Below, one piece after another: positions 1 to 30,135 of a DNA stretch of 30,135 nt. The number at the start of each line of letters is the position of its first letter. The stretch's first letter is position 1. A program made the position numbers and the translations under genes. The stretch spans positions 248,001 through 278,135 of the forward strand of contig BROI01000033.1 of the NCBI GenBank assembly GCA_027923505.1. Reading direction: 5' to 3'. Under the pieces are notes generated by a model. That model had not been told where the DNA came from. It did no database searches and saw only the letters and a list, made by a program, of their open reading frames with translations. This DNA comes from Mayamaea pseudoterrestris (Eukaryota).

Positions 1-280
1 GTTAATAGGTATGCATAAAGGATGTAGGATGTGCAATCCATTCAATGGTACACCTTCAATTCTCCAGTAAAATGACCGGGGTTGGGTTGTGTTGGATGGT
101 GGCTGGTGGACCACATGGTTTTCAGTTATTACACTCAATAGCCATACCCATTTGCCAGCCTGCTTCAATATGAGTCTCTGCAGTTATAAGGCATGCATTA
201 AAGATGGTTGATGTGCAATCCATTCAATGGTAAACCTTCGAACCCTCCAGCAAAATGACCGGGGTTGCGATGTGTTGAAT

Positions 281-2034
281 GGTGGCTGGTGGACCATATG
301 GTTTTCAGTTTTTACACTCAATAGCTAACCCACAGGCCAGCCAGCTTCAATATGAGTCTCTGCGGTGATTAGGCATGCATAAAGGATGTAGGATGTGCAA
401 TCCATTCAATAGTACACCATCAAACCCTCCAGCAAAATGACTGGGGTTGGGTTGTGATGGAAGGTGGCTGTTGGACCACATGGTTTTCAGTTTTTACACT
501 CGATAGCCATACCCATGGGCCAGCCAGCTTCAATGTGAGTCTCTGCGGTTATTAGGCATGCATTAAGAATTTATGATGCGCAATCCATTCAATGGTACAC
601 CTTCAAACCCTCCAGTAAATTGACCGGGGTTGTGTTGTGTTGGATGGTGGCTGGTGGCTGGTGGACCGTTTGGTTTTTCTTACACTCAATAGCCATACCC
701 ATTTGCCAGCCAGCTTCAGTATGAGTCTCTGCGGTTATTAGGCGTGCATTAAGGATGTAGGATGTGCAATCCAGTCAATGGTACACCCTCAAACACTCCA
801 GCAAAATGACCGGGGTTGGGTTGTGTTGAATGGTGGCTGGTGGACCACATGGTTATCAGTTTTTACACTCACAGTCAATAGCCATATCCACGGGCCAGCC
901 AGCTTCAATATGAGTCTCTATGGTTATAAAGGCATGCATTAAGAATGTAGGATGTGCAATCCATTCAATGGTGTTATCCCAAATCCTCGAGCAAAATGAC
1001 TGGTGTTGCGATGTGTTGGATGGTGGCTGGTGAACCATATGGTTTTCAGTTTTTACACTCAATAGCTAACCCACGGGCCAGCCAGCTTCAATATGAGTCT
1101 CTGCGGTTATTAGGCATGTATTAAGGATGTAGGATGGGCAATTCAATCAATGGTGTTGGTGGCTGGTGGACCATATGGTTTTCAGTTTTTACACTCAATA
1201 GCTAACCCACAGGCCAGCCAGCTTCAATATGAGTCTCTGCGGTGATTAGGCATGCATAAAGGATGTAGGATGTGCAATCCATTCAATAGTACACCATCAA
1301 ACCCTCCAGCAAAATGACTGGGGTTGGGTTGTGATGGAAGGTGGCTGTTGGACCACATGGTTTTCAGTTTTTACACTCGATAGCCATACCCATGGGCCAG
1401 CCAGCTTCAATGTGAGTCTCTGCGGTTATTAGGCATGCATTAAGAATTTATGATGCGCAATCCATTCAATGGTACACCTTCAAACCCTCCAGTAAATTGA
1501 CCGGGGTTGTGTTGTGTTGGATGGTGGCTGGTGGCTGGTGGACCGTTTGGTTTTTCTTACACTCAATAGCCATACCCATTTGCCAGCCAGCTTCAGTATG
1601 AGTCTCTGCGGTTATTAGGCGTGCATTAAGGATGTAGGATGTGCAATCCAGTCAATGGTACACCCTCAAACACTCCAGCAAAATGACCGGGGTTGGGTTG
1701 TGTTGAATGGTGGCTGGTGGACCACATGGTTATCAGTTTTTACACTCACAGTCAATAGCCATATCCACGGGCCAGCCAGCTTCAATATGAGTCTCTATGG
1801 TTATAAAGGCATGCATTAAGAATGTAGGATGTGCAATCCATTCAATGGTGTTATCCCAAATCCTCGAGCAAAATGACTGGTGTTGCGATGTGTTGGATGG
1901 TGGCTGGTGAACCATATGGTTTTCAGTTTTTACACTCAATAGCTAACCCACGGGCCAGCCAGCTTCAATATGAGTCTCTGCGGTTATTAGGCATGTATTA
2001 AGGATGTAGGATGGGCAATTCAATCAATGGTGTT
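281..2034 (+). repeat. 877-bp tandem duplication within SatA (281-1157, 1158-2034), out of monomer register
   Basis: ORFs 856..1062 and 1733..1939 are identical (offset 877). Both copies share private indels (GGTGGCTGGTGGCTGG, CTCACAGTCAATAG). The junction AATGGTGTT|GGTGGCTGG lies at 1157/1158. Confidence 0.93.
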
Positions 2035-2042
2035 ATCCCAAA

Positions 2043-2070
2043 AGGATGTAGGATGTAGGATGTAGGATGT
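2043..2070 (+). repeat. (AGGATGT)4 local expansion of the SatA internal heptamer
   Basis: Four copies here versus two in normal monomers, at a point where a truncated monomer restarts. Confidence 0.9.
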
Positions 2071-3045
2071 GCAATCCATTCAATGGTACACCCTCAAATC
2101 CTCCAGCAAAATGACTGGGGTTGGGTTGTGATGGATGGTGGCTGTTGGACAACATGGTTTTCAGTTTTTACACTCGATAGCCATACCCATGGGCCAGCCA
2201 GCTTCAATAAGAGTCTCTGCGGTTATTAGGCATGCATTAAGAATTTATGATGCGCAATCCATTCAATGGTACACCTTCGAACCCTCCAGTAAATTGACTG
2301 GGGTTGTGTTGTGTTGGATGGTGGCTGGTGGACCGTTTGGTTTTCAGTTTTTACACTCAATAACCATACCCATTTGCCAGCCAGCTTCAATTTGAGTCTC
2401 TGCGGTTATTAGGCATGCATTAAGGATGTAGGATGTGCAATCCATTCAATGGTACGCCCTCAAACACTCCAGCAAAATGACCGGGGTTGGGTTGTGTTGA
2501 ATGGTGGCTGGTGGACCACATGGTTATCAGTTTTTACACTCAATAGCCGTATGCACGGGCCAGCCAGCTTCAATATGAGTCTCTGCGGTTATAAGGCATG
2601 CCTTAAGAATGTAGGATGTGCAATCCATTCAATGGTACACCCTCAAACCCTCCAGCAAAATGACCGGGGTTGGGTTGTGTTGGATGGTGGCTGGTGGACC
2701 ACATGGGTTTCAGTTTTTACACTCAACAGCCATATCCACGGGCCAGCCAGCTTCAAAAAGAGTCTCTGCGGTTATCAAGGCATGCATTAAGAATGTAGGA
2801 TGTGCAATCCATTCAATGGTAAACCGTCAAACTTACCAGCAATATGACCGGGGTTGGGTTGTGTTGGATGGTGACTGGTGGACCACATGGTTTTCAGTTT
2901 TTACACTCAATAGCCATACCCATTTGCCAACCAGCTTCAATAAGAGTCTCTGCAAATATTAGGCATGCATAAAGGATGTTGGATGTGCAATCCATTCAAT
3001 GGTACACCTTCAAACCCTCCAGCAAAATGACTGTGGTTGGGTTGT

Positions 3046-5482
3046 ACAGATGCAATGACCTTCAAACGCCCCTACAGCAAGCCCTGTAGGTGCCCAAAAT
3101 ACACCAGAATGGTGTCAACATCATTATTCGGGCTGCGCTACAAGATGGTAGGCTTGGTTGGTGTCTCAGGGGATGACAATGTATCTGGTGACAACTTGTC
3201 ACCATTCACAGCCCGCAGATGCTGTGACATTCAAACGTCCCTACAGCAAGCCCTGTAGGTTCCTAAAATACACCAGAATGGTGCCAACATCATTATTCAG
3301 GCTGAGCGACAAGATGGTAGGCTTGGCTGGTGTCTCAGGGGATGGCAATGTATTTGGTGACAACTTGTCACCAGTCTCAGCCCGCAGATGCTGGACATTC
3401 AAACACCCCTACAGCAAGCCCTGTAGGTGCCCAATATACACCAGAATGGTGCCAACATCATTATTCAGGATGCGCTACAAGATGGTAGGCTTGGCTGGTG
3501 TCTCAGGGGATGGCAATGTATTTGGTGACAACTTGTCACCAGTCTCAGCCCGCAGATGCTGGACATTCAAACACCCCTACAGCAAGCCCTGTAGGTGCCC
3601 AAAATACACCAAAATGGTGCCAACATCATTATTCAGGCTGCGCTACAAGATGGTAGGCTTGGCTGGTGTCTCAGGGGATGGCAATGTATTTGGTGACAAC
3701 TTGTCACCAGTCTCAGTCCGCAGATGCCGTGACATTCAAACGCCCCTACAGCGAGCCCTGTAGGTACCTAAAATACACCAGAATGGTGCCAACATCATTA
3801 TTCAGGCTGCGCTACAAGATGGTAGGCTTAGCGGGTGTCTCAGGGGATGGCAATGTATTTGGTGACAACTTGTCACCAGTCTCAGCCCGCAGATGCTGGA
3901 CATTCAAACACCCCTACAGCAAGCCCTGTAGGTGCCCAAAATACACCAGAATGGTGCCAACATCATTATTCAGGCTGCGCTACAAGATGGTAGGCTTGGC
4001 TGGTGTCTCAGGGGATGGCAATGTATTTGGTGACAACTTGTCACCAGTCTCAGCCCGCAGATGCCGTGACATTCAAACGCCACTACAGCAAGCCCTGTAG
4101 GTGCCCAAAATACACAAGAATGGTGCCAACATCATTATTCAGGATGCGCAACAAGATGGTAGGCTTGGCTGGTGTCTCAGGGGATGGCAATGTATTTGGT
4201 GACAACTTGTCACCAGTCTCAGCCCGCAGATGCCGTGACATTCAAACGCCCCTACAGCAAGCCCTGTAGGTGCCCCAAATACACCAGAATGGTGCCAACA
4301 TCCTTATTCAGGCTGCGCTACAAGATGGTAGGCTTGACTAGTGTCTCAGGGGATGGCAATGTATTTGGTGACAACTTGTCACCAGTCTAAGCCCGCTGAT
4401 GTTGTGACATTCAAACGCCCCTACAGCAAGCCCTGTAGGTGCCCAAAATACACCAGAATGGTGCGAACATCATTATTCAGGCTGCGCTACAAGATGGTAG
4501 GCTTGGCTGGTGTCTCAGGGGATGGCAATGTATTTGGTGACAACTTGTCACCAGTCTCAGCCCGCAGATGCCGTGACATTCAAACGCCCCTACAGCAAGC
4601 CCTGTAAGTTCCCAAAATACACCAGAATGGTGCCAACATCATTATTCAGGCTGCGCTACAAGATGGTAGGCTTGGCTGGTGTCTCAGGGGATGGCAATGT
4701 ATTTGGTGACAACTTGTCACCAGTCTCAGCCCGCAGATGCCTTGACATTCAAACGCCCCTACAGCAAGCCCTGTAGGTGCCCAATATATACCAGAATGGT
4801 GCCAACATCATTATTCAGGATGCGCTACAAGATGGTAGGCTTAGCTGGTGTCTCAGGGGATGGCAATGTATTTAGTGACAACTTGTCACCAGTCTCAGCC
4901 TGCAGATGCCGTGACATTCAAACGCCCCTACAGCAAGCCCTGTAGGTGCCCAAAATACACCAGAATGGTGCCAACATCATTATTCAGGCTGCTCTACAAG
5001 ATGGTAGGCTTGGCTGGTGTCTCAGGGGATGGCAATGTATTTGGTGACAACTTGTCACCAGTCTCAGCCCACAGATGCCGTGACATTCAAACGCCCCTAC
5101 AGCAAGCCCTATAGGTGCCCAAAATACACCAGAATGATGCCTACATCATTATATAGGCTGCGCTACAAGATGGTAGGCTGGGCTGGTGTCTCAGGGGATG
5201 GCAATGTATTTGGTGACAACTTATCACCAGTCTCAGCCCGCAGATGTTGTGACATTCAAATTCCCCTTCAGCAAGCCCTGTAGGTGCCAAAAATACACCA
5301 GAATGGTGCCTACATCATTATTTAGGCTGCGCTACAAGATGGTAGGCTTGGATGGTGTCTCAGGGGATGGCAATGTATTTGGTGACAACTTGTCACCAGT
5401 CTCAGCCTGCAGATGCTGTGAGATTCAAACGCCCCTACAGCAAGCCCTGTAGGTGCCCGAAATACACCAGAATGGTGCCAAC
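3046..5482 (+). repeat. SatB tandem satellite array, 169-bp monomer, ~14.4 copies, orientation defined here as +
   Basis: Exact 169-bp period (ORF starts 4003, 4172, 4341, 4510, 4679, 4848, 5017, 5186). Monomer TAGGTGCCCAAAATACACCAGAATGGTGCC...CCTACAGCAAGCCCTG. Confidence 0.98.
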
Positions 5483-8400
5483 TCATATTGAAGGTGGCTG
5501 GCCCATGGGTATGGCAATTGAGTGTAAAAACTGAAAACCATGCGGTCCACCAGCCACCATTCAACACAACCCAACTCCGGTCATTTTACTGGAGGGTTTG
5601 TAGGTGTACCATTGAATGGATTGCACATCCATCATCCTTAATGCATGCCTAATAACCACAGAGACTCATATTGAAGCTGGCTGGCCCATGGGTATGGCTA
5701 TTGAGTGTAAACTGAAAACCATGTGGTCCACCAGCCGCCCTTCAACACAACCCAACCCCAGTCATTTTACTGGACGGTTTGAAGGTGTACCATTGAATGG
5801 ATTGCACATACTACATCCTTAATGCATGCCTTATAACCGCAGAGACTCATATTGAAGCTGGCTGGCCCGTGGGTATGGCTATTGAGTGTAAAAACTGAAA
5901 ACCATGTGGTCCACCAGCCACCATTCAACACAACCCAACCCTGGTCATTTTGCTGGACAGTTTGAGGGTGTACCATTGAATGGATTGCACATCCATCATC
6001 CTTAATGCATGCCAAGTAACCGCAGTGACTCATATTGAAGCTGGCTGGCCCATGGGTATGGCTATTGAGTGTAAACTGAAAACCATGTGGTCCACCAGCC
6101 ACCCTTCAACACAACCCAACCCCAGTCATTTTACTGGACGGTTTGAAGGTGTACCATTGAATGGATTGCACATCCTACATCCTTAATGCATGCCTTATAA
6201 CCGCAGAGACTCATATTGAAGCTGGCTGGTCCATGGGTATGGCTATTGAGTGTAAAAACTGAAAACCATGTGGTCCACCAGCCACCATTCAACACAACCC
6301 AACCCTGGTCATTTTGCCGGAGGGTTTGAGGGTGTACCATTGAATGGATTGCACATTCATCATCCTTTATGCATGCCAAGTAACCGCAGTGACTCATATT
6401 GAAGCTGGCTGGCCCATGGGTATGGCGATTGAGTGTAAAAACTGAAAACCATGGGGTCCACCAGCCACCATTCAACACAACCAAACTCCAGTCATTTTGC
6501 TGGAGGGTTTAGTAGAACACCATTGATTGAAATGCCCATCCTACATCCTTAATACATGCCTAATAACCGCAGAGACTCATATTAAAGCTGCTGGCCCATG
6601 GATATGGCTATTGAGTGTAAAATCTGAAAACCATGTGGTCCACCAGCCACCACCAACACAACCCAACCCCAGTCATCTTGCTGGAGGGTTTGAAGGTGTA
6701 TTATTGAATGGATTGCACATCCTACATCCTTAATGCATGCCCAATAACCGCAGAGACTCATATTGAAGCTGCTGGCCCATGGGTATGGCTATTGAGTGTA
6801 AAAACTGAAAACCATATGGTCCACCAGCCACCATTCAACACAACCCAACCCCAGTCATTTTACTGGACGAATTGAAGGTGTACCATTGAATGGATTGCAC
6901 ATCCTACATCCTTTATGCATACCTATTAACCGCAGAGACTCATATTGAAGCTGGCTGGCAAATGGGTATGGCTATTGAGTGTACAAACTGAAAACCATGT
7001 GGTCCAGCCACCATCCAACACAACCCAACCACGGTCATTTTGCTGGAGAGTTTGACGGTGTACCATTGAATGGATTGCACATCCATCATTCCTTATGCAT
7101 GCCTAGTAACCGCAGAGACTCATATTGAAGCTGGCTGGCCCATGGGTATGGCGATTGAGTGTAAAAACTGAAAACCATGTGGTCCACCAGCCACCATTCA
7201 ACACAACCCAACTATGGTCATTTTGCTGGAGGGTTTGGAAGAACACCATTAATTGAATTGCACATCCAACATCCTTAATGCATGCCCAATAACCGCAGAG
7301 ACTCATATTGAAGCTGGCTGGCCCATGGGTATGGCTATTGAGTGTAAAAACTGAAAACCATGTGGTCCACCAGCCACCATTCAACACAACCCAACCCCAG
7401 TCATTTTACTGGACGAATTGAAGGTGTACCATTGAATGGATTGCACATCCTACATCCTTTATGCATGCCTAATAACCGCAGAGACTCATATTGAAGCTGG
7501 CTGGCCCGTGGGTATGGCTATTGAGTGTAAAAACTGGAAATCATGTGATCCACCAATTACCACCAACACAACCCAACCCAACCCCAGTCATTTTGCTGGA
7601 GGGTTTGGAAGAACACCATTGAATGGATTGCACATCCATCATCCGTTATGCATGCCTAGTAACCGCAGAGACTCATATTGAAGCTGGCTGGCCCATGGGT
7701 ATGGCTATTGAGTGTAAACTGAAAACCATGTGGTCCACCAGCCACCATCCAACACATCGCAACCCCAGTCATTTTGCTAGAGGGTTCGAAGGTGTACCAT
7801 TGAAAGGATTGCACATCAATCATCTTTAATGCATGCCTTATAACCGCAGAGACTCATATTGAAGCTGGCTGGCAAATGGGTATGGCTATTGAGTGTACAA
7901 ACTGAAAACCATGTGGTCCACCAGCCACCATCCAACACAACCCAACCCCAGTCAATTTGCTGGAGGGTTTGAAGGTGTACCATTAAATAAATTGCACAAT
8001 TAACATCCCTTTTGCATGCCTAGTAACCGCAGAGACTCATATTGAAGGTGGCTGGCCCATGGGTATGGCAATTGAGTGTAAAAACTGAAAACCATGTGGT
8101 CCACCAGCCACCATCAACACAACCCAACTCCGGTCATTTTGTGGGAGCGTTTGAAAGAACACCATTGATTGATTTGCAGATCCTACATCCTTTATGCATT
8201 TCTAGTAACCGCAGAGACTCATATTGAAGCTGGCTGGCCCATGGGTATGGCTATTGAGTGTAAAAACTGAAAACCATGTGATCCACCAGCCACCGTTCAA
8301 CACAACCCAACCCGGGTCATTTTGCTGGAGGGTTTGAGGGTGTACCATTAAATGGATTGCACATCCTACATCCTTAATGCATGCCTAATAACCGCAGAGA

Positions 8401-9041
8401 CTCATATTGAAGCTGGCTGGCCCGTGGGTATGGCTATTGAGTGTAAAACTGGAAACCATGTGGTCCACCAACCACCACCAACACAACCCAACCACGGTCA
8501 TTTTGCTTGAGGGTTTGGAAGAACACCATTGAATGAATTGCACATCCATCATCCCTTATGCATGCCTAGTAAACCGCAGAGACTCATATTGAAGCTGGCT
8601 GGCCCAAGGGTATGGCTATTGAGTGTAAAAACTGAAAACCATGTGGTCCACCAGCCACCATTCAACACAACTCAACCCTGGTCATTTTGCTGGAGGGTTT
8701 GTAAGTGTACTATTGAATGGATTACACATCCTACATCTCTTATGCATGCCTAGTATCCGCAGAGACTCATATTGAAGCGGGCTGGCCCATGGGTATGGCT
8801 ATTGAGTGTAAAACTGAAAACCATGTGGTCCACCAGCCACCATTCAACACAACCCATTTTGCTGGAGGGTTTAAAAATTACCCATTGAATGGATTGCACA
8901 TCCATCATCCTTAATGCATGCCTAATAACCGCAGAGACTCATATTGAAGCTGGCTGGTGAATGGGTATGGCTATTAAGTGTAAAACTGAAAACCATGTGG
9001 TCCACCAGCCACCATTCAAGACAACCCAACCCCGGTCATTT
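5481..9041 (-). repeat. SatA array, inverted; includes a 364-bp dimeric higher-order repeat at ~5600-6400
   Basis: Reverse complement of SatA (GAGACTCATATTGAAGCTGGCTGGCCCATGGG...). Near-identical ORFs at 5616 and 5980 are 364 bp apart. Confidence 0.97.
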
Positions 9042-10332
9042 AGGTGCCCAAATTACACCAGAATGGTGCCAACATCATTATTCAGGCTGCGCTACAAGAT
9101 GGTAGGCTTGGCTGGTGTCTCAGGGGATGGCAATGTATTTGGTGACAACTTGTCACCAGTCTCAGCCCGCAGATGCCATGACATTCAAATGCCCCTACAG
9201 CAAGCCCTGTAGGTGCCCAAAATACACCAGAATGGTGCCAACATCATTATTCCGGCTGTGCTACAAGGTGGTAGGCTTGGCTGGTGTCTCAGGGGATTGT
9301 ATTTGGTGACAACTTGTCACCAATCTCTGCCTGCATATGCGAAGACATTCAAATGCCCCTACAGCAAGCCCTGTAGGTGCCCAAAATTCACCAGAATGGT
9401 GCCAACATCATTATTCAGGCGGCGCTACAAGATGGTAGGCTTGGCTGGTGTCTCAGGGGATGGCAATGTATTTGGTGACAACTTGTCACCAGTCTCAGCC
9501 CACAGATGCCGTGACATTCAAACGCACCTACAAGCAAGCCCTGTAGGTGCCTAAAATATACCAGAATGGATCCAACATCATTATTCAGGCTGCGCTACAA
9601 GATGGTAGGCTTGGCTGGTGTCTCAGGGGAAGGCAATGTATTTGGTGATAACTTGTCACCAGTCTCAGCCTGCAGATGCTGTGACATAGGTGCCCAAATT
9701 ACACCAGAATGGTGCCAACATCATTATTCAGGCTGCGCTACAAGATGGTAGGCTTGGCTGGTGTCTCAGGGGATGGCAATGTATTTGGTGACAACTTGTC
9801 ACCAGTCTCAGCCCGCAGATGCCATGACATTCAAATGCCCCTACAGCAAGCCCTGTAGGTGCCCAAAATACACCAGAATGGTGCCAACATCATTATTCCG
9901 GCTGTGCTACAAGGTGGTAGGCTTGGCTGGTGTCTCAGGGGATTGTATTTGGTGACAACTTGTCACCAATCTCTGCCTGCATATGCGAAGACATTCAAAT
10001 GCCCCTACAGCAAGCCCTGTAGGTGCCCAAAATTCACCAGAATGGTGCCAACATCATTATTCAGGCGGCGCTACAAGATGGTAGGCTTGGCTGGTGTCTC
10101 AGGGGATGGCAATGTATTTGGTGACAACTTGTCACCAGTCTCAGCCCACAGATGCCGTGACATTCAAACGCACCTACAAGCAAGCCCTGTAGGTGCCTAA
10201 AATATACCAGAATGGATCCAACATCATTATTCAGGCTGCGCTACAAGATGGTAGGCTTGGCTGGTGTCTCAGGGGAAGGCAATGTATTTGGTGATAACTT
10301 GTCACCAGTCTCAGCCTGCAGATGCTGTGACA
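9041..10332 (+). repeat. SatB island consisting of two 646-bp copies (9041-9686, 9687-10332)
   Basis: ORF pairs 9115/9761, 9213/9859 and 9566/10212 are all offset by 646. Both copies share a 5-bp deletion (GGGGATTGTATT) and a 1-bp insertion (CCTACAAGCAAG). Confidence 0.96.
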
Positions 10333-11306
10333 ACGGTGTACCATTCAATGGATTGCACATCTTGCAACCTTTATGCATGCCTAATATCCGCAGAGACTCA
10401 TATTGAAGCTAACTGGCCCGTGGATATGGCTATTGAATGTAAAAACTGAAAATTATGTTGTCCACCAGCCACCACCTAACACAACCCAACCCCGGTCATT
10501 TTGCTGGAGGGTTTGTAGGTATACCATTGAATGCATTGCACATCCTACATCCTTAATGCATGCCTAATAACCGCAGAGACTCATATTAAAGCTGCTGGCC
10601 CATGGGTATGGCTATTGAGTGTAAAAACTGAATACCATGTGGTCCACCAGCCACCACCAACACAACCCAACCCCAGTCATTATGCTGGAGGGTTTAAGGG
10701 TGTACCATTGAATGGATTGCACATCCTACATCCTTAATGCATGCCTAATAATCGCAGAGACTCATATTGAAGCTGGCTGGCCCATGGGTATGGCTATTGA
10801 GTGTAAAAACTGAAAACCATGTGGTCCACCAGCCACCACCCAACTCGGGTCACTTTGCTGGAGGGTTTGGAAGAACACCATTGATTGAATTGCACATCCT
10901 ACATCCTGTATGCATACCTATTAACCGCAGAGACTCATATTGAAGCTGGCTGGCCCATGGGTATGGCTATTGAGTGTAAAAACTGAAAACCATGAGGTCC
11001 ACCAGCCACCATTCAACACAACTCAATCCTCGTAATTTTGCTGGAGGGTTTGAGGGTGTACCATTGAATACTATACACATCCTACATCCCTTATGCATGC
11101 CTAGTAACCGCAGAGACTCATATTGAAGCTGGCTGGCCCATGGGTATGGCTATTGAGTGTAAAAACTGAAAACCATGTGGTCCACCAGCCACCATCCATC
11201 ACAACCCAACCCCAGTCATTTTGCTGGAGGGTTTGAGGGTGTACCATTAAATGGATTGCCCATCCTACATCCTTAATGCATGCCTAATAATCGCAGAGAC
11301 TCATAT
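10333..11306 (-). repeat. SatA array, inverted (continuation of 5481-9041)
   Basis: Resumes in phase at ACGGTGTACCATT. Shares the variant ATTAAAGCTGCTGGCCC with the monomer at ~6580. Confidence 0.96.
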
Positions 11307-13436
11307 CAGCCTGAATAATGATGTTGGCACCATTCTGGGTGTATTTTGGGCACCTACAGGGCTTGCTGTAGGGGCGTTTGAATGTAACAGCATCTGCGGG
11401 CTGAGACTGGTGACAAGTTGTCACCAAATACATTTCCATCCCCTGAGACATCAGCCAAGCCTACCATCTTGTAGCGCATCCTGAATAATGATGTTGGCAC
11501 CATTCTGGTGTATTTTGGGCACCTACAGGGCTTGCTGTAGGGGCATTTGAATGTCACAGCATCTGTGGGCTGAGACTGGTGACAAGTTGTCACTAAATAC
11601 ATTGCCATCCCCTGAGACACCAGCCAAGCCTACCATCTTGTAGCGCCGCCTGAATAATGATGTTGGCACCATTCTGGTGTAATTTGGGCACCGACAGGGC
11701 TTGCTGTAGGGGCATTTGAATGTCACGGCATCTGCGGGCTGAGACTGGTGACAAGTTGTCACCAAATACATTGCCATCCCCTGAGACACCAGCCAAGCCT
11801 ACCATCATGTATCACAGCCTGAATAATGATGTTGGAACCATTCTGGTGTATATTGGGCACCTACAGGGCTTGCTGTAGGGGCGTTTGAATGTCATGGCAT
11901 CTGCGGGCTGAGACTGGTGACAAGTTGTCACCAAATACATTGCCATCCCCTGAGACACCATTTAAGCCTACCATCTTGTAGCACAGCCGGAATAATGATG
12001 TTGGAACCATTCTGGTGTATATTGGGCACCTACAGGGCTTGCTGTAGGGGCATTTGAATGTCATGGCATCTGCGGGCTGAGACTGGTGACAAGTTGTCAC
12101 CAAATACATTGCCATCCCCTGAGACACCATTTAAGCCTACCATCTTGTAGCACAGCCGGAATGATGATGTAGGCACCATTCGGATGTAATTTGGGCACCG
12201 ACAGGGCTTGCTGTAGGGGCATTTGAATGTCATGGCATCTGTGGGCTGAGACTGGTGACAAGTTGTCACTAAATACATTGCCATCCCCTGAGACACCAGC
12301 CAAGCCTACCATCTTGTAGCGCCGCCTGAATAATGATGTTGGCACCATTCTGGTGTAATTTGGGCACCGACAGGGCTTGCTGTAGGGGCATTTGAATGTC
12401 ACGGCATCTGCGGGCTGAGACTGGTGACAAGTTGTCACCAAATACATTGCTATCCCCTGAGACACCAGCCAAGCCTACCATCATGTATCACAGCCTGAAT
12501 AATGATGTTGGAACCATTCTGGTGTATATTGGGCACCTACAGGGCTTGCTGTAGGGGCGTTTGAATGTCATGGCATCTGCGGACTGAGACTGGTGACAAG
12601 TTGTCACCAAATACATTGCCATCCCCTGAGACACCATTTAAGCCTACCATCTTGTAGCGCAGCCGGAATGATGATGTTGGCACCATTCTGATGTAATTTG
12701 GGCACCGACAGGGCTTGCTGTAGGGGCATTTGAATGTCATGGCATCTGTGGGCTGAGACTGGTGACAAGTTGTCACTAAATACATTGCCATCCCCTGAGA
12801 CACCAGCCAAGCCTACCATCTTGTAGCGCCGCCTGAATAATGATGTTGGCACCATTCTGTTGTAATTTGGGCACCGACAGGGCTTGCGGTAGGGGCATTT
12901 GAATGTCACGGCATCTGCGGGCTGAGACTGGTGACAAGTTGTCACCAAATACATTGCCATCCCCTGAGACACCAGCCAAGCCTACCATCATGTATCACAG
13001 CCTGAATAATGATGTTGGAACCATTCTGGTGTATATTGGGCACCTACAGGGCTTGCTGTAGGGGCGTTTGAATGTCATGGCATCTGCGGGCTGAGACTGG
13101 TGACAAGTTGTCACCAAATACATTGCCATCCCCTGAGACACCATCTAAGCCTACCATCTTGTAGCGCAGCCTGAATGATGATGTTGGCACCATTCTGATG
13201 TAATTTGGGCACCGACAGGGCTTGCTGTAGGGGCATTTGAATGTCATGGCATCTGTGGGCTGAGACTGGTGACAAGTTGTCACCAAATACATTGCCATCC
13301 CCTGAGACACCAGCCAAGCCTACCATCTTGTAGCGCCGCCTGAATGATGATGTTGGCACCATTTTGGTGTAATTTGGGCACCGACAGGGCTTGCTGTAGG
13401 GGCATTATTTGAATGTCACGGCATCTGTGGGCTGAG
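11307..13436 (-). repeat. SatB array, inverted, with a 3-mer (507-bp) higher-order repeat
   Basis: 169-bp period. Marker CATCATGTATCACAGCC at 11803, 12479, 12986 (676, then 507). ORF ends at 12030, 12537, 13044. Confidence 0.96.
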
Positions 13437-13766: not shown

Positions 13767-13777
13767 GATTAACAGTC
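13767..13777 (+). promoter_or_regulatory. Putative primer-binding site complementary to the tRNA-Asn(GTT) anticodon arm
   Basis: GATTAACAGTC abuts the LTR. Its reverse complement GA-CT-GTT-AA-TC has the form of an anticodon stem-loop with a GTT anticodon. Confidence 0.65.
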
Positions 13778-17755: not shown

Positions 17756-17849
17756 AGCGCAAGGGCAGATGGAAAAGGAGATGGAAGCGGCGGGAGGCAG
17801 CCATGTTTAACCGCATGTGCAAGGCCGGAAAGAAGAACCGTGTCCAAGA

Positions 17850-18290: not shown

Positions 18291-19239
18291 ACAGGGCTTG
18301 CTGTAGGAGTTTTGTATGGCATCTGTGGGTTGGATACACGTTGTCACCAAATACTCATCCCTGAGACATAGCCAGCATTCAATCGGGACCTCAGACTGAA
18401 TATGATGTTGGCACCATTCTGGTGTGATGGTGTACATGTTTGCTGTGAGCATTTGATTGTTTGCTGTTAGACTGGACAAGGTTGTCACCAAATACATTGC
18501 AATGCCCTGAGACACCAGCCAAGCTTCTATTGCGTGTACAGCCCAACTTATGTTGGCACCATCCTGGTGTTATTTGGGTGTATGTCCCACCGTGTAGCGA
18601 AACGAAGGTCATCTGCAGCTGAGATTGGTGACAAGTTGTCATCCCAAATACATTGCCATCCCCTGAGACACAGCAAGCCTACCATCTTGTAGCGCAGCCT
18701 GAAAATGATGTTGGCACCATTCTGGTGTATTGGGGCACTACAGGGCTTGCTGTAGGGGCATTTGAATGTCACTGGCATCTGCGGGCTGAGACTGGTGACA
18801 AGTTGTCACCAAATACATTGCAACCCCGAGACACCAGCCAAGCCTACCATCTTGTAGCGCAGCCTGAATAATGATGTTGGCACCATTCTGGTGTGATTTG
18901 GGTGTATACATGGCTGGCTGTAAGGGCATTTCAATGTCATGGCATCTTTAGGCTGAGACTGGTGACAAGTTGTCACCAAATACATTGCCATCCCCTGAGA
19001 CACCAGCCAAGCCTACCATCTTGTAGCGCAGCCTGAATAATGATGTTGGCACCATTCTGGTGTAATTTGGGCACCTACAGGGCTTGCTGTAGGGGCGTTT
19101 GAATGTCATGGCATCTGTGGCTGAGATTGGTGACAAGTTGTCACCAAATACATTGCCATCCCCTGAGACACCAGCCAAGCCTACCATCTTGTAGCGCAGC
19201 CTGAATAATGATGTTGGCACCATTCTGGTGTAATTTGGG

Positions 19240-22200
19240 CACCTACAGGGCTTGCTGTAGGGGCATTTGAATGTCATGGCATCTGTGGGCTGAGACTGGT
19301 GACAAGTTGTCACCAAATACATTGCCATCCCCTGAGACACCAGCCAAGCCTTCCGTCTTGTAGCGCAGCCTGAATAATGATGTTGGCACCATTCTGGTGT
19401 AATTTGGGCACCAACAGGGCTTGCTGTAGAGGCATTTCAATGTCATGGCATCTTAAGGCTGAGACTGGTGACAAGTTGTCACCAAATACATTGCCATCCC
19501 CTGAGACACCAGCCAAGCCTACCATCTTGTAGCGCAGCCTGAATAATGATGTTGGCACCATTCTGGTGTAATTTGGGCACCTACAGGGCTTGCTGTAGGG
19601 GCGTTTGAATGTCACGGCATCTGCTGGCTGAGACTGGTGACAAGTTGTCACCAAATACATTGCCATCCCCTGAGACACCAGCCAAGCCTACCATCTTGTA
19701 GCGCAGCCTGAATAATGATGTTGGCACCATTCTGGTGTGATTTGGGTGTATACATGGCTTGCTGTAGGGGCATTTGAATGTGACGGCATCTGCTGGCTGA
19801 GACTGGTGACATGTTGTCACCAAATACATTGCAATGCCCTGAGACACCAGCCAAGCTTACCATTTTGTAGCGCAGCCTAAACAAGGTTGTTGGCACCATC
19901 CTGGTGTTATTTGGGCATCTACATGGTTGCTGTAGGGGCAATTGAATGTCATGGCATCTGCGGGCTGAGACTGGTGACAAGTTGTCACCAAATACACTGC
20001 CATCCCCCGCACCACCAGCCAAGCCTACCATCTTGTAGCGCAGCCTGAATAATGATGTTGGCACCATTCTGGTGTATTTGGGTACCTACAGGGCTTGCTG
20101 TAGGGGCATTTGAATGTCATGGCATCTACGGGCTGAGACTGGTGACAAGTTGTCACCAAATACATTGCCATCCCCTGAGACACCAGCCAAGCCTACCATC
20201 TTGTAGCGCAGCCTGAATAATGATGTTGGCACCATTCTGGTGTTATTTGGGCCCCTAAAGGGCTTGCTGTAGGGGCGTTTGAATGTCACGGCATCTGTGG
20301 GCTGAGACTGGTGACAAGTTGTCACCAAATACATTGCCATCCCCTGAGACACCAGCCAAGCCTACCATCTTGTAGCGCAGCCTGAATAATGATGTTGGCA
20401 CCATTCTGGTGTAATTTGGGCACCTACAGGGCTTGCTGTAGGGGCGTTTGAATGTCACGGCATCTGCGGGCTGAGACTGGTGACAAGTTGTCACCAAATA
20501 CATTGCCATCCCCTGAGACACCAGCCAAGCCTACCATCTTGTAGCGCAGCCTCAATAATGATGTTGGCACCATTCTGGTGTAATTTGGGCACCAACAGGG
20601 CTTGCTGTAGAGGCATTTCAATGTCATGGCATCTTAAGGCTGAGACTGGTGACAAGTTGTCACCAAGTACATTGCCATCCCCTGAGACACCAGCCAAGCC
20701 TACCATCTTGTAGCGCAGCCTCCATAATGATGTTGGCACCATTCTGGTGTAATTTGGGCACCTACAGGGCTTGCTGTAGGGGCGTTTGGATGTCATGGCA
20801 TCTGCGGGCTGAGACTGGTGACAAGTTGTCACCAAATACATTGCCATCCCCTGAGACACCAGCCAAGCATTCCATCTTGTAGCGCAGCCTGAATAATGAT
20901 GTTGGCACCATTCTGGTGTGATTTGGGCACCTACAGGGCTTGCTGTAGGGGCGTTTGAATGTCACGGCATCTGGTGGCTGAGACTGGTGACAAGTTGTCA
21001 CCAAATACATTGCAATGCCCTGAGACACCAGCCAAGCTTACCATTTTGTAGCGCAGCCTAAACAAGGTTGTTGGCACCATCCTGGTGTTATTTGGGTGTA
21101 TACATGGCATGTTATAAGGGCAATTGAATGTCATGGCATCTGCGGGCTGAGATTGGTGACAAGTTGTCACCAAATACATTGCCATCCCCTGAGACACCAG
21201 CCAAGCCTACCATCTTGTAGCGCAGCCTGAATAATGATGTTGGCACCATTCTGGTGTAATTTGGGCACCTACAGGGCTTGCTGTAGGGGCGTTTGAATGT
21301 CACGGCATCTGCTGGCTGAGACTGGTGACAAGTTGTCACCAAATACATTGCCATCCCCTGAGACACCAGCCAAGCCTACCATCTTGTAGCGCAGCCTGAA
21401 TAATGATGTTGGCACCATTCTGGTGTAATTTGGGCCCCTAGAGGGCTGGCTGTAAGGGCGTTTGAATGTCATGGCATCTGCGGGCTGAGACTGGTGACAA
21501 GTTGTCACCAAATACATTGCCATCCCCTGAGACACCAGCCAAGCCTACCATCTTGTAGCGCAGCCTCAATTATGTTGTTGGCACCATTCTGGTGTAATTT
21601 GGGCACCTACAGGGCTTGCTGTAGGGGCGTTTGAATGTCATGGCATCTGCGGGCTGAGACTGGTGACAAGTTGTCACCAAATACATTGCCATCCCCTGAG
21701 ACACCAGCCAAGCCTTCCGTCTTGTAGCGCAGCCTGAATAATGATGTTGGCACCATTCTGGTGTAATTTGGGCACCAACAGGGCTTGCTGTAGAGGCATT
21801 TCAATGTCATGGCATCTTAAGGCTGAGACTGGTGACAAGTTGTCACCAAATACATTGCCATCCCCTGAGACACCAGCCAAGCCTACCATCTTGTAGCGCA
21901 GCCGGAATAATGATGTTGGCACCATTCTGGTGTAATTTGGGCACCTACAGGGCTTGCTGTAGGGGCGTTTGAATGTCACGGCATCTGCGGGCTGAGACTG
22001 GTGACAAGTTGTCACCAAATACATTGCCATCCCCTGAGACACCAGCCAGGCATATCATCTTGTAGCGCAGACTGAATAATGATGTTGGCACCATTCTGGT
22101 GTGATTTGGGTGTATACATGGCTTGCTGTAGGGGCATTTGAATGTGACGGCATCTGCTGGCTGAGACTGGTGACATGTTGTCACCAAATACATTGCAATG

Positions 22201-22790
22201 CCCTGAGACACCAGCCAAGCTTACCATTTTGTAGCGCAGCCTAAACAAGGTTGTTGGCACCATCCTGGTGTTATTTGGGTGTATACATGGCATGTTAAAA
22301 GGGCAATTGAATGTCACAGCATCTGCTGGCTGAGATTGGTGACAAGTTGTCACCAAATACATTGCCATCCCCTGAGACACCAGCCAAGCCTACCATCTTG
22401 TAGCGCAGCCTGAATAATGATGTTGGCACCATTCTGGTGTAATTTGGGCACCTACAGGGCTTGCTGTAGGGGCATTTAAATGTCATGGCATCTGCGGGCT
22501 GAGACTGGTGACAAGTTGTCACCAAATACATTGCCATCCCCTGAGACACCAGCCAAGCCTACCATCTTGTAGCGCAGCCTGAATAATGATGTTGGCACCA
22601 TTCTGGTGTAATTTGGGCACCTACAGGGCTTGCTGTAGGGGCGTTTGAATGTCATGGCATCTGCGGGCTGAGACTGGTGACAAGTTGTCACCAAATACAT
22701 TGCCATCCCCTGAGACACCAGCCAAGCCTTCCATCTTGTAGCGCAGCCTGAATAATGATGTTGGCACCATTCTGGTGTAATTTGGGCACC
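19240..22790 (-). repeat. ~7-mer (1181-1183 bp) higher-order repeat of SatB, about three imperfect copies
   Basis: Marker CCAACAGGGCTTGCTGTAGAGG at 19411, 20592, 21775; marker GCAATGCCCTGAG at 19831, 21012, 22195. Boundaries approximate. Confidence 0.85.
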
Positions 22791-25700
22791 TACAGGGCTT
22801 GCTGTAGGGGCATTTGAATGTCATGGCATCTGCGGGCTGAGACTGGTGACAAGTTGTCACCAAATACATTGCCATCCCCTGAGACACCAGCCAAGCCTAC
22901 CATCTTGTAGCGCAGCCTGAATAATGATGTTGGCACCATTCTGGTGTAATTTGGGCCCCTACAGGGCTTGTTGTAGGGGTGTTTGAATGTCACGGCATCT
23001 GCTGGCTGAGACTGGTGACAAGTTGTCACCAAATACATTGCCATCCTCTGAGACACCAGCCAAGCCTACCATCTTGTAGCGCAGCCTGAATAATGATGTT
23101 GGCACCATTCTGGTGTAATTTGGGCACCTACAGGGCTTGCTGTAGGTGCGTTTGAATGTCACGGCATCTGCGGGCTGAGATTGGTGACAAGTTGTCACCA
23201 AATACATTGCCATCCCCTGAGACACCAGCCAAGCCTACCATCTTGTAGCGCAGCCTAAATAATGATGTTGGCACCATTCTGGTGTAATTTGGGCACCTAC
23301 AGGGCTTGCTGTAGGGGCATTTGAATGTCACGGCATCTGCAGGCTGAGACTGGTGACAAGTTGTCACCAAATACATTGCCATCCCCTGAGACACCAGCCA
23401 AGCCTACCATCTTGTAGCGCAGCCTGAATAATGATGTTGGCACCATTCTGGTGTAATTTGGGCACCTACATGGCTTGCTGTAGGGGCGTTTGAATGTCAC
23501 GGCATCTGCGGGCTGAGACTGGTGACAAGTTGTCACCAAATACATTGCCATCCCCTGAGACACCAGCCAAGCCTACCATCTTGTAGCGCAGCCTGAATAA
23601 TGATGTTGGCACCATTCTGGTGTAATTTGGGCACCTACAGGGCTTGCTGTAGGGGCATTTGAATGTCATGGCATCTGTGGCTGAGATTGGTGACAAGTTG
23701 TCACCAAATACATTGCCATCCCCTGAGACACCAGCCAAGCCTACCATCTTGTAGCGCAGCCCGAAATATGTTGGGACCATTCTGGTGTAATTTGGGCACC
23801 TACAGGGCTTGCTGTAGGGGCATTTGAATGTCATGGCATCTCTGCGTGAGACTGGTGACAAGTTGTCACCAAATACATTGCCATCCTCTGAGACACCAGC
23901 CAAGCCTACCATCTTGTAGTGCAGCCTGAATAATGATGTTGGCACCATCCTGGTGTAATTTGGGCCCCTAGAGGACTGGCTGTAAGGGCGTTTGAATGTC
24001 ATGGCATCTGCGGGCTGAGACTGGTGACAAGTTGTCACCAAATACATTGCCATCCCCTGAGACACCAGCCAAGCCTACCATCTTGTAGCGCAGACTGAAT
24101 AATGATGTTGGCATCATTCTGGTGTAATTTAGGCACCTACAGGGCTTGCTGTAGGGGCATTTGAATGTTACGGCATCTGCTGGCTGAGACTGGTGACATG
24201 TTGTCACCAAATACATTGCAATGCCCTGAGACACCAGCCAAGCTTACCATTTTGTAGCGCAGCCTAAACAAGGTTGTTGGCACCATCCTGGTGTTATTTG
24301 GGTGTATACATGGCATGTTACAAGGGCAATTGAATGTCACAGCATCTGCTGGCTGAGACTGGTGACAAGTTGTCACCAAATACATTGCCATCCCCTGAGA
24401 CACCAGCCAAGCCTACCATCTTGTAGCGCAGCCTGAATAATGATGTTGGCACCATTCTGGTGTGATTTGGGCCTTACATGGCTTGTTGTAAGGGCAGGAT
24501 TGAATGTCATGGCATAACTGCCGGTGAGACTGGTGACAAGTTGTCACCAAATACATTGCCATCCCCTGAGACACCAGCCAAGCCTACCATCTTGTAGCGC
24601 AGCCTGAATAATGATGTTGGCACGGGGCGATTTGGGCACTACAGGGCTTGCTGTAGGGGCGTTTGAATGTCACGGCATCTGCTGGCTGAGACTGGTGACA
24701 AGTTGTCACCAAATACATTGCCATCCCCTGAGACACCAGCCAAGCCTACCATCTTGTAGCGCAGCCTGAATAATGATGTTGGCACCATTCTGGTGTGATT
24801 TGGGTGTATACATGGCTGGCTGTAAGGGCATTTCAATGTCATGGCATCTTTAGGCTGAGACTGGTGACAAGTTGTCACCAAATACATTGCCATCCCCTGA
24901 GACACCAGCCAAGCCTACCATCTTGTAGCGCAGCCGGAATAGTGATGTTGGCACCATTCTGGTGTAATTTGGGCACCTACTGGGCTTGCTGTAGGGGCAA
25001 TTGAATGTCACGGCATCTGCGGGCTGAGATTGGTGACAAGTTGTCACCAAATACATTGCCATCCCCTGAGACACCAGCCACGCTTTTCATCTTGTAGCGC
25101 AGACTGAATTATGATGTTGGCACCATTCTGGTGTGATTTGGGCACCTACAGGGCTTGCTGTGGGATTAAAGGTTTTGAATGTCACGGCATCTGCGGGCTG
25201 AGACTGGTGACAAGTTGTCACCAAATACATTGCCATCCCCCTGAGACACCAGCCAGCCTACCATTTTGTACGCGCCAGTTCAATGATGTTGGCACCATTC
25301 TGGTGATATTGGGCACCTACAGGCTTGTTTTTACAGTAAGGCAGTTTGAATCGTCATGGCATCTGCGGCGATTGAGACTGTGCAAGTTGTCACCACAAAT
25401 ACATTGCCATCTGAGACACCAGCTGCCTTTCCAACTTGTAGTGCAGCCGAACTAGTGATGTTGGCACCATTCTGGTGTTTGGGCAGGGCTTGCTGTAGAG
25501 GTTTGGTTCCGCGGCATCTTAGGCTGGAGAGACTGGTGACAAGTTGTCACCAAATACATTGCCATCCCCTGAGACACCCAAGCTTACCATCTCGTAAGTG
25601 CAGCCTGAATAATGATGTTGGCACTACATTTCTGGTGTAATTTGGGCACCTACAGGGCTTGCTGTGGGCGTTTCAATGTCATGGCATCCTGCTGCTGTGG

Positions 25701-27229
25701 GAGAAGGACAAGTTGTCAGTAACCAAAACATTGCCATCCACTGCCCAAAACACCAGCCAAGCATCACCATCTTGACGCGCAGCCTGAATAGTGATGTTGG
25801 CACCATTCGGGGTGTATTTTGGGGCACCATGCGGGCATGCTATAGGGGGCACGGGCATCTGCTGGCTGAGACTGGTGACAAGTTGTCACAATACAAGTTG
25901 CCATCCCCTTCAGACACCAGCCAAGCCTACCATCTTGTAGCGCAGCCTGAATAAGGTGTTGGCACCATTCTCTGCGTGTTATTTGGGCCACCTAGGGCTT
26001 GCTGTAGGAGGCGTTTGAATCACGTGAGCATCTGCAGCGAGACTTGACAATTGTCACCAAATACACCCCCTGAGACACCAACTTTCCATCTCGTAGTGCA
26101 GCCTGAATATTGATGTGGCACCATTCTGGTGTAATTAGGGCACCCTCTGGGGGCTTGCTGTGAGGGCGTTTGAACTTCATGGCATCTGCGGGCTGGGACG
26201 ACAAGTTGTCATAAATCGACCATCCCCAGACACCAGTGAAGCTTTCCATCTTGTAGGTGCAGCCTGAATAATGATGTTGGCACCATTCTGGAGTAATTTG
26301 GGCACCTACAGCTTGCTGTAGGGGCGTTTGGAGAATGTCACGACATCGGCGGGCTGGGACTGAGTGACAAGTTGTCACCAAATACATTGCCATCCCCTGA
26401 GACACCAGCCAAGCTTTCCATCTCGTAGTGCAGCCTGTATAATGATGTGTGCACCGTTCTGGTGTAATTTGGGCACCTACAGGCTTGCTGTGAGGCGTTT
26501 GAACATAGCATCTGCGGGCTGAGACTGGTGGCAAGTTGTCACCAAACAGACAAGTTGTCACCAAATACATTGCCATCCCTGAGACACCAGCCAAGCCTAC
26601 CATTTGTAAAGCGCAGCCTGAAATGATGTTGGCAATTCAATCTGGTGTATTTGGGCACCTACAGGGAGGGCGTTTGAATACGGCATCTGCTAAGACTGGT
26701 GACAAGTTGTCACCAAATACATTGCCATACCCTGAGACACCAGCCAAGCCTACCATCTTGTAGCGCAGCCTGAATAATGATGTTGGCACCATTCTGGTGT
26801 ATTTTGGGCACCTACAGGGCTTGCTGTAGGGGCGTTTGAATGTCACGGTGTCTGGGAGCTGAGACTGGTGACAAGTTGTCACCAAATACATTGCCATCCC
26901 CTGCAACACCAGCTAAGCCTACCATCTTGTAGCGCAGTCTATATATTGGTATTGGCACCATTCTGGTGTGATTTGGGCACCTACAGGGCTTGCTGTAGGG
27001 CGCGAATGCTCTCATCTGGTTGAGGAAAGTGTCACCAATACACAAAGCCCCGAGACACCAGCCAAGCACCATTGTACGCTGAAACATGTGTTGGCCCATT
27101 CTGATTTTTGGCAATCTGGCTTGCTGGTAGGGTTTGAATGTCATGGCATCTGTGGGCTGAGACTGGTGACAAGTTGTCACCAAATACATTGCCATCCCCT
27201 GAGACACCAGCCAAGCCTACCATCTTGTA

Positions 27230-27895
27230 GCGCAGCCTGAATTATGATGTTGCCACATTTCTGGTGTATTTTGGGCACCTACAGGGCTTGCTGTAGGGGC
27301 GTTTGAATGTCACGGCATCTGCAGGTTGAGACTGGTGACAAGTTGTCACCAAATACATTGTCATCCCCTGCGACACCAGCCAAGCACACCATCTTGTAGC
27401 GCAGCCTAAATAATGATGTTGTCACCATTCTGGTGTATTTTGGGCACCTACAGGGCTTGCTGTAGGGGCGTTTGGATGTCATGGCATCTGCGGGCTGAGA
27501 CTGGTGACAAGTTGTCACCAAATACATTGCCATCCCCTGAGACACCAGCCAAGCCTACCATCTTGTAGCGCAGCCTGAATTATGATGTTGCCACATTTCT
27601 GGTGTATTTTGGGCACCTACAGGGCTTGCTGTAGGGGTGTTTGAATGTCACGGCATCTGCAGGTTGAGACTGGTGACAAGTTGTCACCAAATACATTGTC
27701 ATCCCCTGCGACACCAGCCAAGCACACCATCTTGTAGCGCAGCCTAAATAATGATGTTGTCACCATTCTGGTGTATTTTGGGCACCTACAGGGCTTGCTG
27801 TAGGGGCGTTTGGATGTCATGGCATCTGCGGGCTGAGACTGGTGACAAGTTGTCACCAAATACATTGCCATCCCCTGAGACACTAGCCAAGCCTA
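27230..27895 (-). repeat. 2-mer (338-bp) higher-order repeat of SatB
   Basis: ORFs 27279..27545 and 27617..27883 are identical. Marker TTATGATGTTGCCACATTTCTGG at ~27242 and ~27580, and again at ~28429. Confidence 0.85.
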
Positions 27896-30135
27896 ACATC
27901 ATGTAGTGTAGCGCAGCCTGAAAAATGATGTTGGCACCATTCTGGTGTATTTTGGAGACCTGCAGGGCTTGCTGTAGGGGCGTTTGAATGTCACGGCATC
28001 TGCAAGCTGAGACTGGTGACAAGTTGTCACCAAATACATTGCCATCCCCTGAGACACCAGCCAAGCCTACCATCTTGTAGCGCAGCCTGAATAATGATGT
28101 TGGCACCATTCTGGTGTGATTTGGGTGTATACATGGCTTGCTGTAGGGGCGTTTGAATGTCACGGCATCTGGGGGCTAAGACTGGTGACAAGTTGTAACC
28201 AATATCATTGCAGTCTTCTATGACACCAGCCAAGCATTTCATCTTGTAGCGCAGCCTGAATAATGATGTTGGCACCATTCTGGTGTATTTTGGGCACCTA
28301 CAGGGCTTGCTGTAGGGGCGTTTGAATGTCATGGCATCTGTGGCTGAGACTGGTGACAAGTTGTCACCAAATACATTGCCATCCCCTGAGACACCAGCCA
28401 AGCCTACCATCTTGTAGCGCAGCCTGAATTATGATGTTGCCACATTTCTGGTGTATTTCTTTGGCACCACAGGGCTTGCTAGGGTGTTTGAATGTCACGG
28501 CATCTGCAGGTTGAGACTGGTGACAAGTTGTCACCAAATACATTGCCATCCCCTGCGACACCAGCCAAGCACACCATCTTGTAAAGGCAGCTAAGATACG
28601 CTGGCACCATCTGGTGTGTACTCTTGGGACCTACAGGGCTGCTAGGGTACGTCACGGCACTGCGAGGCTGAGACTGAGGGACAACCCTACACCAAAACAT
28701 TGCCATCCCCTGAGACACCAGCCAAAACCAACACCAGTAGTGGTAAAGGAGCCTGAAAAATGATGTTGGCACCACTTGGTAATTTTAGACCTACAGGGCT
28801 TGCTGTAGGGGCGCTTGAATGTCACGGCATCTGCTGAGACTGGACAAGTTGTCACCAACTACATTGCCATCCCCTGAGACACGCCAAGCCTACCATCTTG
28901 TAAAGTGCAGCCTGAAAATGATGTTGGCACCATTCTGGTGTATTTTGGGCACCTACAGGGGCTTAATGTAGGGGGCGCTTTGAATGTCACGCATCTGCAG
29001 CTGACTGCGGACAAGTTGTCACCAAATACATTGCCATCCCCTGAGACACCAGCCAAGCCTACCATCTTGCAGCAGCCCGAATAATGATGCTGGCAATCAT
29101 TCTGGTGTATTTTGGGCACCTGCTGGTGGGCCTTGCTGTAGGGGTTGTTTAATGTCACGTGAGCTGAGACCGGTGACAAGTTGTCACCAAATACATTGCC
29201 ATCCCCTGAGACACCAGCCAAGCCTACCATCTTGTAGCGCAGCCTAAATAATAATGTTGTCAGCATTCTGGTGGTTTGGGCACCTACAGGGCTTAAGGTA
29301 GGGGCGTTTTGATGTCATGGCATCTGGGCTGGAGACTGGAGACAAGTTGTCACCAAATACATTGCCATCCCCTGAGACACCAGCCAAGCCTACCATCTTG
29401 TAGCGCAGCCTGAATAATGATGGTGGCACATTCAGGTTTGGCACAGGGGGGCAATGCGAGGAGAGACAGACATGCTGTCACCAAATATGTCACATCCCCT
29501 GAGACACCAGCCAAGTTTACCATCTTGTAGAGCCTCATTAATGATGTTGGTACCATTCTGGTGTAATTTGGCACCAACAGGCCGCTAGGCATTTCAATGT
29601 CATGGTATCTCATGTGGAGCGGAGATCTGGAGCAAGCTGTCAACAAATACATTATATCCCCTCTGAGACACCAGCCGCTTTTCCTTGTAAGTGTTTCAAT
29701 AACATGCTGGCACCATCCTGGTGTCCCCGCACCTACAGGGTTTGGCTGTAGGGGCGTTCAGAATGTCACGGCATCTGCGTACTGAGACTGCGATAAGTCA
29801 TCACCAAATACATTGCCATCACATCACAGCCAAGCCTATATCATTTTGTAGCATTGAATAATGATGTTGGCACTATTCTGGTGTAATTTGGGTCCCAGGG
29901 CTTGCTGTGTAGGGGTGTTTGAATGTTGCAGCATCTGCTATTGAGACTGGTGACAAGTTGTCACCAAATACATTGCCATCTGAGACACCAGCCAAGCCTA
30001 CCATCTTGGAAGCGCAGCCTGAATAATGTGGCAGGCACCATTCAGGGTGTAATTTGGGCGCCTACAGGTCTTGCTGTAGCTTTGAATGTCACAGCATCTG
30101 CGGGAGCTGAGATTGGTGACAAGTTGTCACCAAAT

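Follow-up and report, generated by a model that had tools for sequence, protein, structure and literature searches.

Here we describe the last 30 kb of contig C33 (C33:248001-278135, of 278,135 bases) from the diatom Mayamaea pseudoterrestris, a stretch of 30,135 nucleotides that we call the window; contigs and loci of the assembly (30.6 Mb, 41 contigs) are denoted by C and L numbers. This window forms the unfinished edge of an island of satellite DNA at a contig end, built from two tandem repeats, satellite A (183 bp) and satellite B (169 bp), together with a copia retrotransposon. At a probability of roughly 0.5, we read the block to which it belongs as a dispersed, CpG-methylated heterochromatin island that collects chromodomain-bearing copia elements and is not a kinetochore site; a centromere role of the classic form is unlikely for it. 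Scattered satellite blocks of this kind are unusual for diatoms and unlike the single large array of a plant or animal centromere.

To describe abundance, exact matches to short diagnostic sequences were counted. A pool of 235 local monomers contains one 18-mer of B 200 times. The assembly matches this 18-mer exactly at 7,817 places, and scaling by 200 per 235 monomers gives ~9,200 copies of B, or 1.55 Mb and ~5% of the assembly. A 180-bp family gave 1,493 matches, corresponding to ~3,200 copies, and satellites total about 10-13% of the DNA. A first-pass annotation of the window, made from its letters alone, had pictured a two-satellite system, possibly with one large array per chromosome, and neither idea is supported by the assembled DNA. 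At least seven unrelated satellite families are present, those besides A and B having units of about 168, 174, 180, 171/178 and 144 bp, while among the first 150 of 455 matches copies of A with at least 84% identity occur only on C33 and at the end of C25, copies at 74-83% being found on nine other contigs. As for the arrays, the assembled DNA holds four blocks on C33, at least seven sites on C12 and five clusters on C1.

Reading C33 in full revealed that ~41% of it is satellite, in blocks at 0-31, 88-99, 159-217 and 246-278 kb that are separated by 28-60 kb of mostly unique DNA, the last gap containing ordinary genes. On C12 (975 kb), four of 20 evenly placed probes were satellite (12.7%) and 16 had normal CpG and open reading frames (ORFs) of 208-830 amino acids. 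The five clusters of C1 (3 Mb) lie 0.43-0.56 Mb apart and include the largest cluster sampled (~150 kb), block sizes starting below 1 kb. A sampled tally placed ~90 sites on 35 of the contigs, a single contig holding as many as seven, and genes lie between the sites; this figure takes in sites based on one short match, counts C33 as two blocks (really four) and omits two C12 sites. Since gene segments have satellite on both sides, many blocks are interstitial.

This dispersal bears directly on whether the block could be a centromere. In a monocentric arrangement, each chromosome would have one CENH3 domain in one satellite block, such as this one, and the other blocks would be inert spill-over. 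Nucleosome-sized units, higher-order repeats and inversions would suit this arrangement, as would one CenH3-like gene, so classed by its diagnostic residues, the lack of a low-GC alternative among the windows and AT-rich spots checked, and the 21 of 63 contig ends (63 of 82 were examined) that break in satellite, as large unassembled arrays would. However, ~90 sites exceed any plausible number of chromosomes, model diatoms having 24 to 33 (PMC8147415), the A/B mosaic is found at both ends of C33, 215 kb apart, and only half of the copia flanks are in satellite as against ~90% centromeric copies for the oomycete element CoLT (PMC7082073). We therefore regard a monocentric role as possible but unlikely. 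The end of C25 (L042) and the start of C33 (L041) carry the same A/B mosaic at ~92% identity and may flank one unassembled array.

Alternatively, each block could be one unit of a repeat-based holocentromere, giving polycentric chromosomes similar to those with Tyba arrays. Spreading 1.55 Mb of B over ~90 sites yields a mean of ~17 kb at each, with a site roughly every 340 kb, and the clusters of C1 are evenly spaced, but the spacing on C33 is 28-60 kb, at least seven families are present rather than one, and blocks range from <1 kb to ~150 kb. In addition, Phaeodactylum is monocentric by CENP-A chromatin immunoprecipitation (10.1101/096016), and Hantzschia and Nitzschia have paired localized kinetochores (PMC2111477), making a holocentromere quite improbable. 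A more elaborate version, in which the short low-GC centromere was abandoned and the dispersed islands became holocentromere units, with chromodomain copia elements feeding them by integrating at one set phase of the 169-bp unit, itself perhaps a former copia RNase H fragment, is decidedly improbable as well.

We also considered whether the satellite of the window simply runs on to a telomere past the contig end. A TTAGGG array was found at only one of the 82 contig ends (L121, the start of C11), where it adjoins the 180-bp satellite, and this family has one polarity at nine of ten contig ends (one-sided p 0.011), making it a candidate subtelomeric repeat; on C30, B and the 180-bp family are separated by a four-copy telomere repeat. 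Some blocks are thus probably subtelomeric. For the block studied here this is clearly unlikely, as the window has neither a telomere repeat nor the 180-bp family, the polarity of B at contig ends is mixed, and gene segments of 28-60 kb flanked on both sides by satellite cannot all be chromosomes. The four telomere repeats inside C30 (219.8 kb; L150:2597-2830) may be a fusion scar or a mis-join, and at C1:1226-1245 kb the 180-bp satellite flips from the minus to the plus strand, as an end-to-end join would give. A separate repeat of up to 2.5 kb is common to five contig ends (L123, L126, L151, L152 and L158) at 96-100% identity; it is not a known satellite and did not match the copia query.

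The sequence composition of the islands points to their chromatin state. The ratio of observed to expected CpG is 0.17-0.26 in four satellites versus 1.08-1.18 in four gene-rich loci, and across 262 B monomers transitions affect 13.1% of CpG positions versus 1.7% of other C/G positions. We infer that this loss is the scar of long-standing cytosine methylation, a modification reported at CpG sites of diatom long terminal repeat (LTR) elements (PMC2806351), and the islands would accordingly be expected to be heterochromatic. The copia element itself is not CpG-depleted (1.16-1.24), in keeping with a young age.

To define the element, copies elsewhere in the assembly were compared. These are 6.0-6.8 kb long with 329-bp TG...CA LTRs, the LTR pairs being identical at 325-329 of 329 positions in eight of 11 copies, and 5-bp target duplications flank four of the 11 copies checked. 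One copy has a single ORF of 1987 amino acids in the order gag, protease, integrase, reverse transcriptase (RT) and, last, RNase H (RVT_2, E 2.9e-25). Genome-wide there are 110 exact LTR starts, and 42 of 150 RNase H matches listed reach at least 85% identity. A database protein labelled as from this species is 100% identical over the queried copia RNase H, in support of a diatom host, here a pennate species; the first-pass annotation had deduced a diatom or related stramenopile from CoDi-like motifs, and the CoDi-like copia identity of the element was likewise borne out. The CoDi groups are described in PMC2806351, and a chromodomain behind the integrase has been reported for CoDi-A (PMC2774666). 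In our copia family, a motif behind the integrase is conserved in 82 of 120 homologs, and a structural model of the integrase tail (pLDDT 87.8) was used for two fold searches. Chromo and chromoshadow domains fill the top of both, although the scores are only moderate (best E 0.08); each of the 30 leading VIA rows is such a domain or a protein carrying one (Z 4.3-6.6), and the best matches have Z 6.6 (rmsd 5.0, 76 residues aligned) and Z 6.3 (rmsd 1.1, 42 aligned). According to the model, the tail of the integrase adopts a chromodomain fold, the feature by which CoDi-A has been described, and the motif also occurs in the other copia families of the genome.

We next consider where these elements are inserted. 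Among the first 30 LTRs, which lie on C1-C3, 15 have satellite no more than 400 bp from their outer flank, nine of them B, the two flanks of one insertion not being independent. With about 10-13% of the DNA in satellite, the excess is strong against a null of 10% satellite and modest against an assumed 25% of safe sites; a test run with 14 of 30 gave p 3e-7 and p 0.008, respectively. For two other copia families, eight of 20 3' flanks are in satellite, or 10 counting tandem LTRs, although these copies were hand-picked, mostly for long ORFs, with some satellite positions already known, so that bias is possible. Satellite targeting specific to one family was rejected, as the two other families behave alike. 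The association between copia and satellite is thus real, partial and common to three families: the first-pass proposal that the satellite has its own satellite-targeting copia was right about a clear insertion excess, while half of the flanks lie outside satellite and the preference is shared. Two insertions on different contigs, L007 and L009, have an identical left junction in the 169-bp unit with a target duplication in one only, for which recombination or duplication between islands is a candidate explanation.

Insertions of two of the families into B may also favour one part of the unit. Seven of nine junctions of the two other families (L173, L177, L178, L180, L185, L187, L189, L040 and L044) fall at unit positions 48-69, on both strands (p about 0.0007, the width of this range having been chosen after seeing the data). 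These positions lie just past a 17-bp palindrome, over CpG sites of the unit. The element of the window is inserted at B position 55, but for its own family phase clustering was not significant (p 0.14-0.22). Because selection cannot easily yield a phase bias, this pattern points to integration guided by sequence or by nucleosomes.

Taken together, these observations suggest how the islands might arise. They would be patchworks of unrelated nucleosome-sized repeats, copied between islands and inverted within them, that enlarge as local stretches are duplicated and inverted and that trade families with one another, and would persist as long-methylated, gene-free heterochromatin between genes and at chromosome ends. 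The chromodomain integrases of several young CoDi-A-type copia families probably bias insertion in part towards island chromatin, selection would remove insertions from gene-dense DNA and so leave copia in the islands, and later duplication or deletion would truncate the elements.

Several points weigh against this heterochromatin-island reading. The site map is a sample rather than a census, arrays at contig ends are cut off, and each chromosome might therefore conceal an array of far greater size. Pfam and PDB sequence searches gave no chromo match for the integrase tail, its fold searches scored only moderately, and the sole Chromo call from Atlas had a value of 0.79. The insertion excess over an assumed safe-site null of 25% is modest (p about 0.01-0.04). 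Finally, no low-GC island of the Phaeodactylum type that could serve as the centromere instead was seen on C33 or at 13 AT-rich spots free of microsatellites, a low-power test in which the spots came from the first 100 of 390 matches, reaching C18. The most AT-rich spot, L222 (C16:391.8 kb), has 500 bp at 34% GC with four low-GC windows and is a weak candidate for such a site. Among 20 histone-fold matches, seven loci are of H3 type and one gene, L095 (C2:130.3 kb), is CenH3-like; we take its substitutions and longer loop 1 to be typical of CenH3.

The layout of the window was established with TRF, which found the 183-bp and 169-bp arrays, and by BLAST labelling, which assigned 7,317 and 17,303 bases, together 24.6 kb of the 30.1-kb window, to satellite in seven segments. 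Family and orientation switch along the window in the order A+, B+, A-, B+, A-, B-, element, B-. The features are as follows.

1-3045, plus strand: satellite A; the array starts 2.4 kb left of the window and includes the 877-bp 5-mer duplication (TRF, BLAST).
3047-5480, plus strand: satellite B, ~14 monomers (TRF, BLAST).
5481-9040, minus strand: satellite A, inverted, ~20 monomers (TRF, BLAST).
9041-10332, plus strand: satellite B, two identical 646-bp 4-mer units (BLAST).
10335-11306, minus strand: satellite A, ~5 monomers (TRF, BLAST).
11307-13436, minus strand: satellite B, inverted, with a 3/4/7-mer higher-order signal (BLAST).
13437-13766, plus strand: 5' LTR, beginning with TG and matching the 329-bp LTR of a second copy at 98.8% identity.
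14398-15045, plus strand: gag region, frameshifted (tblastn with the L005 ORF).
15611-15997, plus strand: protease region (tblastn with the L005 ORF).
16311-16915, plus strand: integrase core region, from motifs and position (Pfam rve not significant).
17556-17780, plus strand: chromodomain-like module behind the integrase (motif, model and fold searches).
18001-18290, plus strand: RT start and end of the element, without RNase H and without 3' LTR.
18278-18610, minus strand: degenerate junction of element and satellite B, a real deletion or an assembly join (BLAST).
18610-30135, minus strand: satellite B to the contig end, noisy after ~24400 (TRF, BLAST).

The block that holds the window is at least 33 kb long and is ended by the contig end. 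GC content is 46% in A and 50% in B, and 46-54% over the block. The monomers of A and B have no significant mutual similarity by BLAST, and a common origin of the two was rejected on this ground. Higher-order repeats are local only: a 5-mer of 877 bp is doubled at 280/1157 (878 of 880 bases identical), a 4-mer of 646 bp is doubled exactly at 9041/9687, and weaker 3/4/7-mer signals accompany these doublings, which may be recent or may be assembly errors. The first-pass description of two nucleosome-sized satellites with higher-order repeats and orientation switches therefore stands. Its embedded LTR element is a young CoDi-like copia, but the copy in the window, at 13437 to ~18290, is incomplete and error-ridden: it comprises one LTR, gag, protease, integrase, the chromodomain-like tail and the start of RT, in which it is cut off, RNase H and the 3' LTR both being absent. 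Alignment to an independent copy required 143 gaps in ~4.7 kb, versus 2-11 in 6.8 kb for three other copies, and B monomers drop to 86% identity at 24.4-27.1 kb. Because of the gaps in the element, the noisy B satellite and the position at a contig end, the right half of the window is likely an unpolished consensus.

These irregularities raise the possibility that the mosaic of the window is largely misassembled. Consistent with this, the element has a high gap rate, the doublings are exact, the contig end is noisy, six other loci lack every one of the five satellite junctions compared, and the join between element and satellite at 18.3 kb was bridged by none of the contigs listed for four public runs. 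However, A/B mosaics also occur at the start of C33 and the end of C25, the monomers left of 13.4 kb are clean and mutually different, the 5' LTR junction is sharp, and both repeats and the element were found in the four public runs, so that we consider a largely artefactual mosaic most improbable. In these runs the summed contig depth of B is several hundred times that of the element interior, a value that would hint at under-assembly of B but that according to the tool is not a copy number. No RNA run among the public runs listed held the queried sequences.

Finally, one frame of the 169-bp unit (window 4504-4672) resembles a copia RNase H motif over 27 residues, a likeness that was first spotted by eye and scored afterwards. 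With a first profile, two of three monomer pairs scored 3.4-3.9 bits, reached by 11 and 9 of 2,000 shuffles (27 for the third pair), and with a second profile 4.9-5.0 bits, reached by 0 of 2,000 (4 for the third pair). At the DNA level, B matched none of seven RNase H regions of the genome convincingly, since 7-162 of 300 shuffles scored as high. It is possible, judging from these scores, that the B unit derives from a copia RNase H fragment. A coding role of the satellites was rejected, as Pfam matches on four satellite frames were all below the cut-off. Short-period repeats (8, 11, 20 and 28 bp) were observed within copia copies or next to them, and also where one contig begins (L006:7801-10000, L128 and L022:4314-4541). 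A gene situated 50 kb to the left of the window is similar to the pyrenoid shell proteins of diatoms (score 0.96).

In the literature searched without the species name, we found no diatom genome of which about a tenth is nucleosome-sized satellite. A centromere atlas from 2026 that covers 325 species does not mention diatoms in the available parts of its main text and terms its protist centromeres cryptic (10.64898/2026.09.17.752431), the word 'satellite' was not found for two model diatoms in the available parts of PMC8147415, and satellites have been described in an oomycete (PMC7290008). The parts of the present system are of known kinds, and the same literature yielded no small diatom genome that combines them. 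With dozens of satellite islands in only 30 Mb, this genome offers a compact setting for telling low-GC, satellite and holocentric centromeres apart and for testing whether the chromodomain of CoDi-A, put forward in 2009, tethers the element to heterochromatin; should the islands prove to be heterochromatin and nothing more, the value of this work is descriptive.

Regional satellite centromeres include Arabidopsis CEN178 and, as another example, alpha satellite. CEN178 with its ATHILA and Tal1 elements shares nucleosome-sized monomers, higher-order repeats, inversions and young LTR insertions with the islands described here, and the integrase C-terminus of Tal1 sets its target (PMC11735389), whereas in M. 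pseudoterrestris the blocks are small and numerous on a contig, the families number at least seven, and about half of the insertions lie outside satellite. The Tyba arrays of Rhynchospora (~20 kb, spaced ~400 kb; PMC10954556) are similar in being short arrays among genes with a like mean size and density, but differ from our blocks, which belong to several families, are uneven in size and spacing and are enriched at contig ends, and related diatoms appear monocentric. Within the same phylum, the centromeres of Phaeodactylum (10.1101/096016) and Fistulifera (10.1101/2021.11.10.468027) are 2.4-5.6 kb long, poor in GC and almost devoid of repeats; the genome studied here also has a CenH3-like gene, but the block has 46-54% GC. 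None of 601 100-bp windows across it is at or below 32% GC, and it is therefore not a low-GC centromere of the Phaeodactylum type, in agreement with the first-pass contrast between ~50% GC satellites and such centromeres. The element resembles CoDi-A in its copia order, TG...CA LTRs, 5-bp target duplication, integrase chromodomain and diatom host (PMC2774666), although the available parts of PMC2774666 and PMC2806351 report no bias of CoDi-A towards satellite or heterochromatin, as against the roughly half of flanks in satellite here. The oomycete element CoLT of Phytophthora is likewise a stramenopile copia clustered in heterochromatin, but its clusters are usually one per contig, with satellite not forming the matrix (PMC7082073). 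Thus, unlike the centromere-specific CoLT and Tal1, the copia copies of M. pseudoterrestris are not confined to a centromeric repeat, with 15 of 30 flanks near satellite.

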